Counted from the stretch's first letter, positions 30,001 to 39,000 are shown. The stretch is DNA of 64,000 nt from an uncultured Chlamydiae bacterium (GCA_963828125.1 CAWHDP010000001.1:288001-352000); one strand, 5' to 3'. Numbers: made by a program.

Positions 30001-33000
30001 TGCCGCAAGCTGCTCAGTGAAAAAGCTCTCTGAATAGGACACCGTGATTACCTCAATTTTATGAGCACTTGCGATCAATCATTTTATCTTATTTTTTAGA
30101 GATGATTCAAGTTAATCGTAAATTCAATCCTAAAGCAATCACCAGAGAAACAAGAGTATGCCATTTAGGATTACCCTTTTCTGAAAGAGTTTTGTAGAGG
30201 CTTTCTCTTCCTATGCCCGCTTTTTTTGCGAGATTCCCAACACCACCTTGTGCTTCGGCAACATTGCGAATAGCGACGAGGAAAAGATGTTGAGATTCTT
30301 CATCACCTTTAAGACTTTCTTCTAAGGCAGCATTGAGATAAGCAACGGCTTCATCGTGATCCTTTAGCTTTTCTAAAAGCCACTCTTGATAATTTTTATT
30401 TTTTGCCATGTTTTTTCTCCCTCAATTGGTACTCTTTTAAATACTCCTTAGCTTTATTAATGTCCTTGGTTTGCGAACTTTTATCACCACCACAAAGCAA
30501 GAGTACGACCTTATTGCCTCTTTTCGAGTAATAGACTCTAATTCCTGGCCCATAGTGAATTTTCAATTCTGCAATTCCATCACCAAGAGCCTTACAATCA
30601 CCAAAGTTTCCCACTTTTAGGCGATCAAGCCGTGTAAGGATTTTGGCGCGAGTATGCAGTTCCCTTAGGCTTTCAAACCAATCATCAAAAGGGCAGTGAC
30701 CAGAAGCTGTTTCGTAAAGCTCAATCTCGATTTCCATAATTTCATTGTATCCTGCAAGATACATTATTGACAAAAGGTTTGTAAAAGGCTAAATGTGAAG
30801 TGGTTAAAAATTTATCTTTAAAGCCTAACCAGTCAAAAGTTCGAAGTGTTCCCAGTATCTGGAGTTCTTCTATGAAAAATAGGGACAAAAGAGGACCTCA
30901 AAAAGAAGCCTCAAACAGTCAAATGCCGTAATCTTGCCGGAGTACGGAACTTCCTTAAATTACCCAAGCAGGGTGTCGATTCCGTTCAATTTACGGCAAT
31001 CATTAGAAGGCAACCAAGTAACAGGCAAACTTAGATAGACGATGCAAAGCTTTTTTAGCCTCTGTGCTAAGGGGTTGTCCGGAAATAACTTTTAGAGCTG
31101 CATAGAGAAAAAGTCGCACTTTTCATAGAGTAATGCCAATTCTCACCATGGGTCAAAATAGGGGGGTGGGTCACTTTTCAATGTCGAAAGGGGGTCATTT
31201 TACATTGTCGCCTGACACGTGGAGCCTTGTAGAGCTTTTCCGTGCAGTGATAGAGATCCTGAAGGGAGAAAAAACAGCAACCCAACTCGCAGGTGAATTG
31301 GGAGTGCACCAAAACTTTACCATTTCCTTACTGAATTTTAACAGCTGGTAAATTTAAGAATAGTGGTATTCCATTTCTTCATTTTTTTTGGGGCCGATCA
31401 CGCGCCAGTTAAGGCGAATGCTATGACGATCCCATAGGACCTGGGCAAGATAGGCGTCTTCTTCGCAAAGATGAGAATCCATGGAAGCTAGGCGATTGCT
31501 ACCCGTGGGAGCCAAATGAAAGAGAAACACGGGACAGCTAGGGCCCAAGCGCAAGTGCTCTAGAGAGATCATTCCCGCTTCTCTATCCAACGTCCAGCGA
31601 AATGTGTTGCTAAACGTCATGTTTTGGTCTTGTCGTATTTGCCACGAACCTCTTTCATGAAATATCAAAATATGATCGCTTTCCCTAGACACGAGAACGT
31701 CTCCCTTCCCTTTTCCGTTCCAACCGGTTTCTTCTTTGGATCGCGATTTTGCGTGGAGAGTCAGTTGCTTCATCGTCTTTAGTTTTTCCCAAAAACCAAG
31801 AAGAAGCGGCTCTTGAATCCGTTTTTCGAGAGTATCTTGCTGAACGAGAGAATAAAGTTTTTTGTCCTGCGGAGAAAGAAGGGTATAGGCTTTTTTTAAC
31901 AGCTGTTCTAGCTCGCTGAGCAAGGGATAAGAGGGATTCAATTGGTAAAGCTTTGTTTTTCCCTCAGAATAGCTGATGATGATCCTTCCCTGCTCTAGCC
32001 GACCCAGCGCATTCTGAAGCGATGTCAAAGGAGTTCTTAAAATTCTTTGAAGCTGCGCTCCGTAACATTTGCTATTCACAAACAGGAAAAGCAAGACTTT
32101 TTGCACATTTTTGTTCCCGCACAGACCTTCTAACATAAGAAAATTGACCTAATTTTTAGTTTATAAAATTCCCCTATGCATCTCTGGCATTCGGGCTGAA
32201 CACAGTAGGATGCCACAGAATATGCGTTTTTATAAACTGGTTTTTAGGTTTTATAAAAATCTTTCTAGTTGTCAACCAGATAGACGGACTTTTATCCTCG
32301 TTTACACAAGAGGGGAGATGACAGATGAACGACCGATGCGCTTGGACTAAAGAAGAGATTAGATCGATTCATGACAGCCCCCTTTTGGATTTAATCTATC
32401 GGGCTGCAACAATCCATAGGGCACACCATCCTGCAAACCAAGTGCAGATCTGTTCTTTGATCTCCATTAAAACGGGCGGGTGCCCTGAAGATTGCAAATA
32501 TTGCCCTCAATCAGCTCGCTATCAAACCAATGTCAGTTCAACCCCGCTCATGCAAGAAAAAGAGATCGTTGACATGGCAAAAAAGGCAATTGTGAACGGG
32601 GCCACAAGGGTTTGTCTGGGGGCCGCCTGGCGTTCTGTACGAGATAGCGCTCAATTTGAATTAGTGCTTCGAGCGATCAGGCAAATTACCGATATGGGAG
32701 TAGAAGTTTGCTGTACGCTGGGAATGCTTACAGAATCTCAAGCTAACCGTCTGAAGGAGGCTGGACTTTATGCCTATAATCACAACCTCGATACTTCCCC
32801 AGAGTTTTATTCTTCGATCACAACAACTCGGAAATACGAAGATCGGCTTAAAACTTTGGATGCTGTAGAGGGCGCAGGGATGAGTGTCTGCTGCGGAGGC
32901 ATTATTGGGATGGGAGAGAGTGTTGAGGATCGGGTGGGTCTCATCTACATGCTAGCCAATCGAAATCCTCATCCTGAATCTGTTCCAATCAATCTTTTAA

Positions 33001-36000: not shown

Positions 36001-39000
36001 GATGCGATGTAATGGGAACCATTCTCGCAATGGAGTATCGAACGGAAAAAACTTCATATGACCATCCGCTGAAACAATGCTTGATCGAATTTTTCCAAGG
36101 CAAAGGGATTCTTTTGCGTCCTCTTGGAAATGTCCTCTATATCCTTCCCCCTTATTGCATCACCCGCGAGGAGTTACAAAAAATTTATTCTGCCATTGCA
36201 ATCACATTGGAGGAATGGCAATGACCAAAGGCTTCATCTCTTTTGAAAAAGAGATAGCTGGTTTAATCCGGCAAATAGTACCTGACCCTACTCTCCATGG
36301 ACTTTGGTTAAATACTCTGTCCTACCTCGAAAATTGTGGAGCTCGTAAAATTGCTTCCTGTGAACACCCAACTTTGGTCAAAGAAGAAATGCTCAAGCAT
36401 GCTGCGGAAGAGTTTCGTCATGCTTTTTATCTTAAGACGCAACTTCGCAGGATTGGCACTTCTTATGAAGACTACCGCAGACCCCATCTTTTAGGTGGAT
36501 GGGCGGCGTATCATTATCTCAACGCCCTCGATCTCAAAACTTCTCGCTATCTCAAAACTCTTGGGATCAGCCCCTATCAAATCAAGCAGCTCGCCTATCT
36601 TTTGGTCACTTATGCAATTGAACTTCGCGCAGGCGAACTATATCCCCTCTACCAATCCGCTCTAAAGCAGTGCCAATCGAAAGTGCAAGTGCAATCCATC
36701 CTTTTGGAGGAAAAGGAGCACTTACAAGAGATGGAGCAAGGGTTAAATTTGGTGCCATCATCGTCGTTGTATATTGAAGCTATTTGCGGACTCGAAGCTT
36801 CTCTATTCAAGCATTGGCTCCAGGCCTGCCTCGCGGAGGGAGTGACAAGCGCCATTGCTATGACAAATTGCATTGCTACTCAGGAGTGGTGCTGAAAGAA
36901 GTTTCCTGAACAACCCATGATAAATAGCTTGGATTTCCTCGGACAATATCGACCTGTAAAATCTCTGTAGGCGAGCCATCTTAAAACTGCCAAGCGAGTC
37001 CTATATTTAGTTGGTGAGATTGATATTGTATGCCAAATTCGCCCTGGTAAAAGAGGGTACTTGTGGGATAGCAGGCATTTAGCGGATCAAAACTGATTGC
37101 AAGCTGCCCTACTCCTAAATTTTGTGCAGATGATAGCGTTTCTACCGTAAAGGAACCAGGTGAGCCAACGAGGAATCCATTGACTTTGCCTGCATTGAAT
37201 GATTGTGTGTTTACATAACTGATTTTTTCTTGGATGCTAAAATTCCATGATTGAAAAAAGAAGGTTTCATACAAACGCAACCCAGCCTCTGTCCGAAGAA
37301 GCGATCCGTTATAAGCTTTTTGAGCCGCATTAAAGGGGCTGTCTCCCTTTTCTTGATAGCTTTGTTGCCAAGCGTTGGCCCAATCGAGCATGGCAAAGGG
37401 ATTGAGACAAAAATTGTTTGTTTTGGATGGATTCATTATGTTCTTTTTGCAACCTAATTCCAGGTGAGGAAGGAATTGCCATCCATTGGGATGTGATGAG
37501 GAGCGAAATGAAAAGCTGGTCATTTTAGTATTTCGTACTTGATCGATTTGGACGCCTCCCCCCATCACAAGGAGATCGACATAAAATTGTTGATTATCCC
37601 ATGAACTGTAGATAAACCCTTCTTCCTGATTAATATTGCTGTGTCCCTGGCCCTCTTTTTCGTGAATATGGGTAAACAGATACGATATCCCTCCTCCCAC
37701 TCGCAACTCCGGCATAATCATGTAATCGAAAGCCAAGATAGCTCCGCCAGTTGTTGGGTTAAACCTGACGGTTTGGTGTTGCGATTTCTGGTACGCCAAA
37801 GCACCGATCGTTTCGAACCAAATCGAAAAGGGATTGCCGAGAAGAGAATGGCTCGGCGGTTTTTGTTGTACGGATAGCGAAGTCAATAGCTCTTGAAAAG
37901 GCAATGTATTTTCAGCAACAGCAGTCGATTTTTTTTGTTGCCAGAATCTTTCCGATTGTTGATTTCTGATGTGATTTGCAAAGCTCGTCGTCAGATTGAA
38001 TAAGTTGTAGCTTGCGGCGTAGATCGATATCCCATTGCGCGTGGGAGCTGCGCTTTGCAGCGCTCCGTTCAGCGTTCCATCCAAGGTTGCAGGAATGAAA
38101 TAAAACGCATCCTCAGAAGAAAATTCGTTAATATAATTGGCAAAAATTAAATTATTGCCAGATAAAGAGGCGGTGGGAATTTGTGTTAATAGACTAGGTA
38201 GCAATGCTACGGTATTGATCCACCCGTTGATTGTGATACCTCCTGTGAGTGTAAGAGGGGTCACCATGCCGTAAGAAGAGACAAGCGCTGCGTAACCAGG
38301 TTGAGATCCGGTTAGATTCCACCCTCCGATAAGACCATTTCCTTCATCATTGATTGCAACGCTATAGATAATTCCATTATTATCCATATCGCTTCCTAGG
38401 ACAAGCGGGGTTACAGTTCCGGAAGTGGAGATGAGCGCTGCGTAGGCAGGCTGAGATCCGGTCAGATCCTGTCCTCCGATGATCCCCATTCCAGTGGAGT
38501 TAATCGCAACAGAATTGATGATGCCATTCGTAGCCACACCTCCTATCAAGGTGAGAGGGTTCACAGTGCCGGAAGCGGAGACGAGCGCCGCATAGGCAGG
38601 CTGAGAGCCTGTTAGATCTTGCCCCCCAATAATCCCATTTCCAGACAAATTGATCGCTACAGAAAAAATCTCTCCAGTCGTAGATATACCTCCTGCTAGA
38701 TCGAGCAGGTTCACAGTTCCGGAAGGTGAGACGAGCGCCGCATAGCCAGGCTGAGATCCGGTTGAGTCCCGCCCTCCGATCATCCCGTTTCCAGAGGAAT
38801 TAATCGCTACAGAGAGGATCGTTCCATTCGTAGCTACACCTCCTGTTAATGTTAGAGGAGTCAATGTGCCTGAAGGAGAGACGGATGCTGCGTAGGCGGG
38901 CTGCGCGCCGTAGTAACTCTGTCCTCCGATGAGGCCGTTTCCAGAATCGTTGATTGAAACGCTATTAATCACTCCACCCGATGCTATTGGTTCTGAAAAT

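Follow-up and report, generated by a model that had tools for sequence, protein, structure and literature searches.

Organization of the locus

The window analysed here is a stretch of 64,000 nucleotides from the genome of an uncultured Chlamydiae bacterium, and all positions are counted from its first letter. The five biotin genes bioB, bioF, bioD, bioA and bioE follow one another on one strand and are separated by a 188-nt spacer from a divergently oriented gene, g00319, whose product we refer to as the regulator (Table 1); the coordinates and strands of the reading frames agree with the layout given in an earlier note on this DNA. Homologues of bioA align only from approximately residue 35 of the listed frame, and the true start of this gene is probably an internal ATG that overlaps the end of bioD.

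Table 1. Features of the regulator-biotin gene locus (positions within the window; a dot marks features given without a strand)
Feature	Position	Strand	Basis or remark
Regulator gene g00319, 260 aa	31354..32136	-	ORF; winged HTH + DUF6314 barrel
Helix + ten-stranded beta-barrel, residues 106-260	31354..31821	-	DUF6314; nitrobindin/FABP-like; HMM + model
Winged HTH, residues 1-91	31864..32136	-	ArsR/SmtB-MarR-like fold; structure model + fold matches
Regulator-bioB spacer, 188 nt	32137-32324		genes on either side divergent
Operator A (putative), GACCTAATTTTTAGTTT	32146..32162	.	18.1 bits, genome rank 2
Operator B (putative), AAACTGGTTTTTAGGTT	32234..32250	.	18.0 bits, genome rank 3
Predicted bioB promoter, TTGTCA-18-TATCCT	32269..32298	+	sequence prediction
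bioB	32325..33290	+	Pfam BATS + Radical_SAM
bioF	33287..34360	+	Pfam Aminotran_1_2
bioD	34357..34980	+	Pfam AAA_26
bioA	34878..36224	+	Pfam Aminotran_3; ORF as listed begins at TTG
bioE, 224 aa	36221..36895	+	ferritin-like diiron oxygenase type; start overlaps bioA stop

The last gene of the operon, g00324, matches no Pfam or NCBIfam family. Its identification as bioE is borne out by six candidate metal ligands (E37, E64, H67, E134, E164 and H167) in the pattern E, ExxH, E, ExxH, with spacings of 27, 3, 67, 30 and 3 residues as against 27, 3, 69, 30 and 3 in CpBioE and EmBioE, a single shift of two residues. What is more, genes 47-49% identical to it, in frames of 228-233 aa, lie approximately 4 kb 3' of the start of bioB in four of five genomes of family f35, which we take to be the Chlamydiaceae. 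The BirA homologue of this genome, 244 aa long, contains the ligase domain alone and no HTH, as had been reported.

A winged helix-turn-helix joined to a ligand-binding type of barrel

The two-domain reading of the regulator stands, with one domain recognized by profile and fold and the other by fold. Namely, DUF6314 (PF19834) covers residues 136-259 with 45.4 bits against a gathering cut-off of 23.1, and residues 1-125 match no Pfam family even at E<=10 and none in NCBIfam. The structure model (pLDDT 88.8, pTM 0.80) places in the N-terminal part a helix at residues 9-21, a strand at 23-25, helices at 26-33 and 37-49, and strands at 53-58 and 61-66. Residues 1-91 of the model match known winged HTH proteins with Z between 9 and 11.3 (HlyU 11.3, BigR 10.9, MarR 10.7, SmtB 10.5), and profile searches against the PDB return weak matches to PadR, ArsR and AdcR chains (E 0.012-0.2). 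The modelled helix at approximately residues 37-49 would be the recognition helix, and L37, Q41 and L47 within it are invariant in the alignment of regulators.

In the C-terminal part, the model shows a helix at residues 105-119 followed by eleven strand segments, which we read as a ten-stranded barrel. Its fold is of the ligand-binding type: residues 106-260 match nitrobindin (including the C-terminal domain of THAP4), Rv2717c, OlmO and CpeS with Z 10.4-11.6 over 135-141 aligned residues (rmsd 3.3-3.8; 3ia8, Z 10.9; 3wjb, Z 10.5; 2fr2, Z 11.0), at a sequence identity of 5-11%. Nine barrel residues (E161, G163, R180, E193, H194, L195, G198, Y229 and Y259) are invariant in 64 sequences, H194 and H222 are both conserved in the alignment, and the putative effector pocket lies within this barrel. 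A search for homologues returned 852, and among the 120 listed nearly all are 256-265 aa long and all contain PF19834.

Genomic partners and distribution

Among 401 sampled genomes of the order, at least 134 have a full-length homologue, and the proportion in the earlier note, 10 of 60, was an underestimate. In 110 of the 138 full-length loci used for the context count, the regulator gene stands beside a biotin gene, being divergent to bioB in 64, to bioY in 40 and to a BPL_N gene in 6. Another 23 loci have no adjoining biotin gene, and a search for a further target there found none; downstream of the regulator, no cluster of more than three loci emerged across the 138. In family f35, none of 22 bioB-positive genomes (1.0-1.3 Mb) carries a full-length regulator, which goes against the suggestion that it fills the gap noted for Chlamydia. 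Likewise, 36 further bioB-positive genomes outside f35 have no full-length copy among the matches listed. The regulator is probably confined to the Chlamydiota, and it was not found in the Chlamydiaceae-like family. Outside this phylum, DUF6314 is unlinked to bioB by the count of the earlier note, a point against a biotin role.

A conserved palindrome in the spacer

The candidate operator is a 17-bp palindrome, AAACTA-N5-TAGTTT, of which the spacer holds two copies. Operator A lies 9 nt from the ATG of the regulator gene, over its ribosome-binding region, and its position is unchanged in close relatives; operator B is centred at 32242, and the predicted -35 element of bioB follows 27 bp downstream. 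With a matrix built from the spacers of relatives, the two rank second and third among all 17-mers of the genome, and with a matrix that leaves out their own clade they rank second and fourth (17.6 bits for operator A); simulated genomes contain 0-2 matches at this score level. The 18-mer AAACTGGTTTTTAGGTTT at 32234-32251, an imperfect copy of the palindrome, occurs once in the 2.37-Mb genome. The inverted repeat described previously is indeed unique here and recurrent in relatives, but it is one of two copies, the other being that at 32146-32162.

Of 141 loci, 126 have one or more palindromes of at least 12 bits in the 350 nt upstream of the regulator, a count that takes in three N-terminally short copies (63 of 65 loci paired with bioB and 63 of 76 others), against a background of 14 sites in 400,387 nt. 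In genomes in which bioB is distant from the regulator, the palindrome still precedes bioB by 85-222 nt in seven of eight cases, the regulator being on a different contig or at a distance of as much as 90 kb; in the single miss, the contig ends 158 nt before the gene. Of 12 hand-picked genomes devoid of the regulator, one has a palindrome upstream of bioB, and that genome is 61% complete. Upstream of bioY genes located away from the regulator, no palindrome was found in three relatives or in the present genome.

Could the protein simply regulate itself, or bind DNA with no role in biotin metabolism, its place beside the biotin genes being an inherited gene order? The sites do lie upstream of the regulator itself, 23 of the 138 loci have no biotin neighbour, and the distant bioY genes have no site. 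That said, such an account would have to accommodate three different biotin gene sets as partners in 110 of 138 loci, sites before distant bioB genes in seven of eight genomes as against one in 12 regulator-free ones, and fixed phasing to the predicted promoters of both bio and bioY (see below), and we regard it as very improbable. On the strength of the three independent partner sets, the conserved operator and its presence before bioB where the regulator is encoded elsewhere, we put the probability that this wHTH-DUF6314 protein is a new one-component, biotin-responsive regulator of biotin genes in environmental chlamydiae, whatever the sign of control, at roughly 0.85. It would then very probably be the long-missing switch by which these bacteria control the synthesis and uptake of biotin. 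The proposal of a function for DUF6314 is strongly supported by the same three lines of evidence, and a DUF6314 protein would thereby gain a role.

Promoter geometry and the sign of control

A stringent search predicts promoters in 33 of 64 bioB spacers and 11 of 46 bioY/BPL_N spacers, as well as before five stand-alone bioB genes; among relatives, the predicted bioB promoter is mostly TTGAAA-17-TAAAAT. Measured from the operator centre, the predicted -35 element begins after 27-29 or 37-38 bp in 30 of the 33 bioB promoters, in 9 of the 11 bioY/BPL_N promoters and in all five stand-alone ones, i.e. in 44 of 49 overall. In other words, relative to the predicted target promoters, the operator nearest to them is centred at approximately -62 or -73, two positions that are one helical turn apart. 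The final 80 nt ahead of bioB are free of operators of at least 8 bits in 56 of 65 spacers. Read towards the regulator, the site in many loci overlaps a -35-like hexamer or sits in the promoter spacer, which fits autorepression. Neighbouring palindromes occur 20-22 bp further upstream in 25 pairs, and a second palindrome is found at 66-69 bp in 20 pairs and at 85-90 bp in 21.

Would a protein at such sites activate or repress? Class-I activators such as CRP act at -61.5 and -72.5, so that -62/-73 is a textbook activator position, and the predicted operator position suits repression no better than it suits class-I activation combined with autorepression. From the earlier note we retain the role of g00319 in controlling biotin genes, but would call it a regulator rather than a repressor, given upstream operators at 44 of 49 predicted promoters. 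A protein that, loaded with biotin, occupies the operators as a co-repressor would do so through dimers cooperating over the 21-bp arrays and 66-90-bp loops and would shut both its own promoter and those of bio or bioY. At the target promoter, from -62/-73, it would either hold or block the C-terminal domain of the polymerase alpha subunit (alpha-CTD) or take away an AT-rich upstream element that lies in phase; GalR at its upstream operator OE is a precedent. The near-consensus character of the predicted target promoters speaks for this and against activation, as near-consensus promoters are usual among repressed genes and unusual among activator-dependent ones. So does the wHTH fold, which is nearest to the ArsR/SmtB and MarR repressors, ArsR/MarR-type proteins being mostly repressors, and the multi-site arrays with their second sites are typical of cooperative repression. 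In addition, all four known biotin regulators, BirA, BioR, BioQ and BioL, are repressors according to published accounts. What such a co-repressor does not readily explain is that 56 of 65 spacers have no operator over the bioB core promoter or leader, that strict 27/38-bp phasing, seen in two unrelated target operons, would be expected of a stereospecific positive contact, and that a loop would enclose the promoter of the regulator rather than that of bio. Moreover, repression from -62/-73 is rare. All in all, this mirror image is nearly as likely as the activator model set out below.

The effector

No bioB turned up at E<=1e-30 in 43 of the 46 genomes that pair the regulator with bioY or BPL_N, several of these 43 being assembled in 1-3 contigs, and the effector is therefore most likely biotin rather than a pathway intermediate. 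From the earlier list of candidates (biotin, an intermediate or the acyl substrate of BioE), biotin is thus favoured; the other two were rejected as unlikely on the same count. The nine invariant barrel residues are common to regulators of both contexts, and the DUF6314 barrel would bind biotin itself or a direct derivative of it.

It has to be weighed whether another signal acts on the same genes, be it a fatty acid or acyl-ACP (the substrate of BioE), KAPA or dethiobiotin, haem or NO as in nitrobindins, or the biotinylation state of a carrier protein. The proteins closest in fold have haem, fatty acids or polyketides as ligands, DUF6314 is widespread beyond biotin contexts by the earlier count, and BioL is reported to sense an intermediate. 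On the other hand, neither intermediates nor BioE would be present in those 43 genomes, the barrel residues are invariant in both contexts, and the end product is suggested by a regulon that joins synthesis and uptake with a ligase-related gene. We consider a different effector unlikely.

Proposed mechanism

In the model that we favour, the winged HTH, presumably as a dimer, would bind the 17-bp palindrome, whose half-sites, 11 bp apart, lie on one face of the helix, with sites in arrays at 21-bp intervals and a further site or array at a distance of 66-69 or 85-90 bp. Here, the regulon would comprise bioBFDAE and the regulator's own gene; in relatives no longer able to synthesize biotin, it would be bioY and a BPL_N gene. 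The biotin-free, DNA-bound form would activate the bio and bioY promoters from approximately -62/-73 through a face-specific contact with RNA polymerase; the same form would shut the regulator's own promoter, placed between or over the operators, and the binding of biotin would free the protein from DNA. With this sign of control, the model has, in our estimate, slightly less than an even chance of being right; its binding site and regulon share the higher probability given above for the regulator. That it would be the first positively acting biotin regulator, in which biotin held in a ten-stranded calycin-type barrel switches off polymerase recruitment, is a tentative proposition that we rate a little lower still. 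If it is true, DUF6314 would be a new vitamin-sensing domain, its barrel a functional cousin of avidin, and the regulator a lineage-specific transcription factor within the very small regulatory repertoire of chlamydiae.

Comparison with known systems

Divergently encoded activator-autorepressors are known among LysR-type proteins and in PdxR, for vitamin B6. The present system resembles these and CRP in its predicted operators at approximately -62/-73, extra sites two turns upstream, divergent regulator and sites over the regulator's own promoter; it differs in that g00319 has no homology to any of them and that its target promoters are near consensus and predicted. Among biotin regulators, BirA, the class II biotin protein ligase and repressor described for E. 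coli bioO, binds a single palindromic operator to control biotin promoters that diverge from it, senses the end product and often has bioY in its regulon. The regulator is likewise tied to divergent biotin genes and a palindromic operator, with probable end-product sensing. Unlike BirA, it has no BPL_LplA_LipB ligase domain, the ligase being a separate protein in this genome, its operator is clear of the predicted target core promoter, and its proposed sensor is a beta-barrel rather than an enzyme active site.

BioL of Elizabethkingia is described as a MocR/GntR-type protein of 56 kDa with an HTH and an aminotransferase-like domain, which senses KAPA and binds 46-bp operators; there, too, a stand-alone regulator serves a BioE-type bio cluster in a host whose BirA has no HTH. 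It has no sequence or domain relation to g00319, and an intermediate as ligand is impossible for a g00319-type protein in most bioY-type genomes. The operators of BioR and BioQ sit over promoters. These two proteins, of GntR and TetR type, respectively, are described as lineage-specific repressors that assumed control of biotin genes where BirA is devoid of an HTH, and comparative genomics of the present kind led to their discovery. In contrast, g00319 has no GntR, TetR, aminotransferase-like or FadR-like domain by Pfam, its fold being wHTH plus beta-barrel.

Compared with nitrobindin-type barrels, the DUF6314 barrel is set apart by its proposed ligand, biotin. Note that the THAP domain binds DNA. 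By the title of its PDB entry, human THAP4 carries its barrel at the C-terminus, behind the THAP domain, and the barrel of g00319 is likewise C-terminal, behind the wHTH.

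The biotin locus and the proposed regulator protein

The arrangement described in the earlier note, namely a putative regulator gene (g00319) divergent to the bio operon with an inverted repeat in the spacer between them, was confirmed by the open reading frames, by Pfam, by the spacer itself and by the ranks of its sites in a matrix search. On the plus strand beyond the spacer, bioB (BATS and Radical_SAM in Pfam), bioF (Aminotran_1_2), bioD (AAA_26), bioA (Aminotran_3) and a 224-aa ORF follow one another with stops and starts that overlap or abut. For this last ORF, bioE, searches of Pfam and NCBIfam returned no family; its residues E37, E64, H67, E134, E164 and H167 reproduce, with one 2-residue shift, the published BioE ligand pattern, given for CpBioE as E41, E68, H71, E140, E170 and H173 in passages of PMC12915131. 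The sole biotin-ligase homologue of the genome, an ORF of 244 aa, comprises just the ligase domain; a second BPL_LplA_LipB match was rejected as a biotin ligase, being a lipoate ligase.

Features of the window and of related loci (positions without prefix are window positions; L-numbers are fetched homologue loci, G000 is the genome of the window, G135 another sampled genome)
Feature	Position	Strand	Description
Regulator ORF	31354-32136	-	260 aa
Regulator-bioB spacer	32137-32324		188 nt
Operator A	32146-32162		GACCTAATTTTTAGTTT
Operator B	32234-32250		AAACTGGTTTTTAGGTT
Predicted bioB promoter	32269-32298		TTGTCA-18-TATCCT
Toxin-antitoxin pair and two further ORFs	30107-30773 and 29314-30078	-	Gp49/HigB-like and HI1420/HigA-like (Pfam); two ORFs resembling transposase fragments (by eye)
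835-aa ORF	36981-39488	-	downstream of bioE
bioY of the same genome	G000:C2:183666-184191
Fragments of bioB and/or bioE	L068:3007-3322, L077:2957-3094, L124:3055-3356		beside intact regulator
bioY-BPL_N unit (examples)	L033:1954-3308, L141:4480-5824, L120:4684-6188
Locus L149	G135:C1:540703-548245		copy matching regulator residues 81-259 only

The toxin-antitoxin pair lies directly downstream of the regulator, together with two ORFs that, read by eye, resemble transposase fragments, and the regulator locus borders mobile DNA. On the other side, the 835-aa ORF shows by eye some ten tandem repeats of the G-I-I-G-G / Y-A-A-L-V-S type and a C-terminal part resembling an autotransporter barrel, and may encode a polymorphic-membrane-protein-like surface protein.

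In the regulator itself, Pfam places DUF6314 (PF19834) at residues 136-259, with 45.4 bits against a cut-off of 23.1. For the N-terminal 125 residues Pfam gave nothing even at E<=10, and NCBIfam gave no family; a profile of 64 homologues run against the PDB gave weak matches, all of them winged-helix regulators (PadR 1xma at E 0.012, CmtR, SqrR, AdcR/ZitR). An AlphaFold model built from the alignment of these homologues (pLDDT 88.8, pTM 0.80) consists of a winged helix-turn-helix, then a helix, then a beta-barrel that we read, in the model, as ten-stranded. In a comparison with 48,161 PDB representatives, made without Foldseek, residues 1-91 match HlyU (Z 11.3), BigR (10.9), MarR proteins (up to 10.7) and SmtB (10.5). 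Residues 106-260 have as their top match a designed transmembrane barrel (Z 14.1), followed by OlmO (11.6), CpeS (11.3), Rv2717c (11.0), the THAP4 nitrobindin domain (10.9), plant nitrobindin (10.5) and Rv0813 (10.4). Foldseek concurs with these fold matches, at lower significance. The earlier description of the protein as a winged helix-turn-helix joined to a ligand-type barrel is, by the model and these matches, right at the level of fold, and the regulator belongs to no ArsR, MarR or PadR family of Pfam. Invariant among the 64 homologues are L15, L37, Q41 and L47 in the helix-turn-helix and E161, G163, R180, E193, H194, L195, G198, Y229 and Y259 in the barrel. Two copies folded together scored 0.41, the mark being 0.42.

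The proposed operator and the predicted regulon

The analysis of DNA sites used 138 full-length homologue loci, which were among the 150 best rows when 401 genomes sampled from the order were searched, together with three copies short at the N-terminus. A 17-bp palindrome, AAACTA-N5-TAGTTT, with the variants AACCTA/TAGGTT, is common to the 65 regulator-bioB spacers. Using a matrix built from 129 spacer sites, we found a site of at least 12 bits within 350 nt upstream of the regulator in 63 of the 65 bioB-paired loci and in 63 of the 76 others; in the 400,387 nt downstream of regulators that served as background, there are 14. Among all positions of the genome of the window, operators A and B rank second and third, and they rank second and fourth with a matrix from which their own clade was excluded; the genome holds five sites of at least 17 bits, against 0-2 in five first-order Markov genomes. 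A genome search also bore out that the 18-mer singled out earlier, which corresponds to operator B, is unique. The other top matches of the matrix adjoin genes without a connection to biotin, one of them an unknown ORF of 529 aa, the others a Peptidase_M78 gene and a gene of the transposase-like HTH type; these matches were taken as chance rather than as members of the regulon. When recognition-helix residues were set against the operator variants (AAACTA versus C/TACCTA), position 26 alone differed, and it gave no convincing link. One regulator-bioB spacer, that of locus L036, is enlarged to 485 nt by about 250 nt of nested, GC-rich inverted repeats, which separate its two operators and resemble a small, mobile insertion of palindromic sequence.

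BioB was found in 132 of the 400 scored genomes. In eight identified genomes the regulator lies on another contig or 70-570 kb from bioB, and in seven of these a scan of 1.5 kb upstream found a site of at least 12 bits 85-222 nt before the bioB ATG; in the eighth, which has no site, just 158 nt separate bioB from the contig end. For comparison, twelve bioB-positive genomes were hand-picked from 58 without a listed regulator, two of them from a Chlamydiaceae-like family: upstream of bioB, eleven of the twelve have no site, the exception being a 61%-complete assembly, and in the two from that family the one match, a weak one, falls within the coding sequence of bioB.

Turning to bioY genes away from the regulator, no site was found in three of three relatives with a lone regulator, nor in the genome of the window; in two of the five genomes searched for such genes there was no BioY match. 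The genome's own bioY stands downstream of a fabF-like gene (by eye) and of an ORF of 270 aa to which Pfam assigns no family. As this bioY has no operator, biotin uptake seems not to be under the regulator here, and the predicted regulon in this genome is limited to bioBFDAE and the regulator itself. Finally, in five genomes where no biotin gene adjoins the regulator, a scan for the palindrome with one mismatch gave 10-32 matches per strand, against 46-74 for a reversed-pattern control. Apart from a bioF-like aminotransferase, the 15 loci it returned contained no biotin gene, and one exact match that was inspected lies between two convergent gene ends.

Gene partners and the probable ligand

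Neighbours were assigned by tblastn with the bio proteins of the window and with BioY and BPL_N proteins found by Pfam in the loci. Among the 138 full-length loci, the divergent neighbour is bioB in 64, bioY in 40 (with a BPL_N gene next in 28 of them) and a BPL_N gene directly in six; BPL_N lies 2.5 kb away in one, a contig end falls within 600 nt in four, and none of these is present in 23. Downstream of the regulator, no cluster of genes comprises more than three loci. The partners comprise three distinct sets of biotin genes, and the lineages concerned reach down to 36% identity, so that inherited gene order alone is insufficient as an explanation. In three of the 23 loci without a biotin neighbour, tblastn detects short stretches of bioB, bioE or both, left over from a bio operon that decayed in place, the regulator being kept.

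How many genomes carry the regulator was counted from the matches listed, weaker ones being left aside, and the count is therefore a floor: at least 134 genomes have a full-length copy, 74 with bioB and 60 without. In 43 of the 46 genomes where it is paired with bioY or BPL_N, several of them assemblies of 1-3 contigs, bioB is absent (E<=1e-30), and these 43 have neither pathway intermediates nor BioE. Regulator, operator and invariant barrel residues are retained all the same, for which reason the parsimonious effector would be the end product, that is, biotin or a direct derivative. In other words, the suggestion that the protein senses a pathway intermediate or the acyl substrate of BioE is not borne out by these genomes.

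The bioY gene and, after it, a stand-alone BPL_N-domain protein (about 250-310 aa; PF09825) form a conserved two-gene unit under the regulator's operator in 28 loci, the three examples in the table and 25 further ones; in six, BPL_N alone stands under it. BPL_N is the N-terminal domain of eukaryote-type biotin ligases; tblastn found no homologue of it in the genome of the window. Some genomes (G189, G227, G084 and G320) have two full-length paralogues of the regulator, and in G189 one of them (L011) and the other (L120) are divergent to bioB and to bioY-BPL_N, each with its own sites. At L149, a copy with the barrel and without the helix-turn-helix is divergent to an intact bioBFDA, and its spacer has one weak site; truncation or a frameshift of the regulator gene may account for this copy. 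The stand-alone barrel copies L148 and L150 have no site.

Promoter geometry and the sign of control

Downstream of the promoter-proximal site, toward bioB or bioY, there is a conserved predicted promoter of the sigma-70 type, mostly TTGAAA-17-TAAAAT. For each promoter predicted by a stringent search, we determined how far the operator centre lies from the -35 element, counting to its first base. The distance is 27-29 or 37-38 bp for 30 of the 33 promoters predicted in 64 bioB spacers, for nine of the 11 predicted in 46 bioY/BPL_N spacers and for all five predicted at eight stand-alone bioB genes, these five being at 38 bp. The two classes are one helical turn apart and correspond to about -62 and -73 of the predicted promoters. 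Among pairs of neighbouring sites, 25 have a spacing of 20-22 bp, 20 of 66-69 bp and 21 of 85-90 bp, and 56 of 65 spacers have no site of at least 8 bits in the last 80 nt before bioB. Read in the direction of the regulator, sites overlap a -35-like hexamer or a promoter spacer, and in the window the distance to the ATG is 9 nt. Judging from these positions, the DNA-bound regulator would block its own expression and would occupy, at its target promoters, classic class-I activator positions.

This geometry favours an activator that represses itself, and we give activation by the biotin-free form a probability of roughly 0.45. That said, the target promoters are near consensus, the four known biotin regulators are of the repressor type and ArsR/MarR-like proteins are usually repressors, all of which speaks against activation; co-repression by the biotin-loaded form is an alternative nearly as probable, and other readings of the control are unlikely. 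The regions upstream of bioB in genomes without the regulator were also set against those of relatives as a gauge of promoter strength; being unrelated, they allow no inference on the sign. Among public sequencing runs, nine DNA runs and no RNA run were listed for this organism.

Distribution and significance

From a collection of species-representative genomes, 80 loci were returned, with titles of Chlamydiota MAGs (Parachlamydiales, Rhabdochlamydiaceae, Simkaniaceae, Waddliaceae, Protochlamydia and others), of unplaced 'uncultured bacterium' MAGs and of a few labelled Verrucomicrobia or Bacteroidetes. The ESM Atlas gave one matching cluster only, the regulator's own DUF6314 cluster, labelled Chlamydiota. 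Among the full-length matches listed, the regulator is absent from all 22 bioB-positive genomes (1.0-1.3 Mb) of the Chlamydiaceae-like family, which is taken to be the Chlamydiaceae, and from 36 other bioB-positive genomes; in four of five genomes of this family, BioE counterparts with 47-49% identity are encoded some 4 kb past the start of bioB.

The interpretation put forward earlier is supported in its core, a regulator of biotin genes, and has to be widened to bioY and BPL_N; it needs correction as regards the ligand, for which biotin would take the place of intermediates, and as regards the range, with none of those 22 genomes offering the proposed answer to the gap in Chlamydia. The pathogens' gap stays, and about one third of the other bioB-positive genomes have no listed full-length copy either. 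For the environmental lineages, there is now a concrete candidate regulator, whose operator and regulon are defined and whose likely ligand has been narrowed down. This would be the first function for a DUF6314 protein, a small biotin-responsive switch of new architecture, and it would add a transcription factor with a predicted site to a phylum that has few such factors and is difficult genetically.

Our literature search found no publication naming 'DUF6314' or 'PF19834' and none relevant to a chlamydial biotin regulator, and the words 'biotin', 'bioB' and 'bioY' do not occur in a Waddlia ChIP-seq paper, supplements aside (PMC4989314). Passages of the 2012 BioY paper describe chlamydiae as lacking BioQ, BioR and class II BirA, those of a 2025 paper report BioL as lacking in Chlamydia (PMC12915131), and those of another 2025 paper mention, for C. 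psittaci, that bioE is preceded by a GntR-type gene. By comparison only, we rate the protein as a putative new kind of biotin regulator, new in architecture and of a known functional class.

In seven genomes with no listed full-length regulator (G044, G076, G099, G136, G150, G041 and G325), the match to bioB is contained in an open frame 704-1003 aa in length, which suggests that bioB is fused there to another gene.
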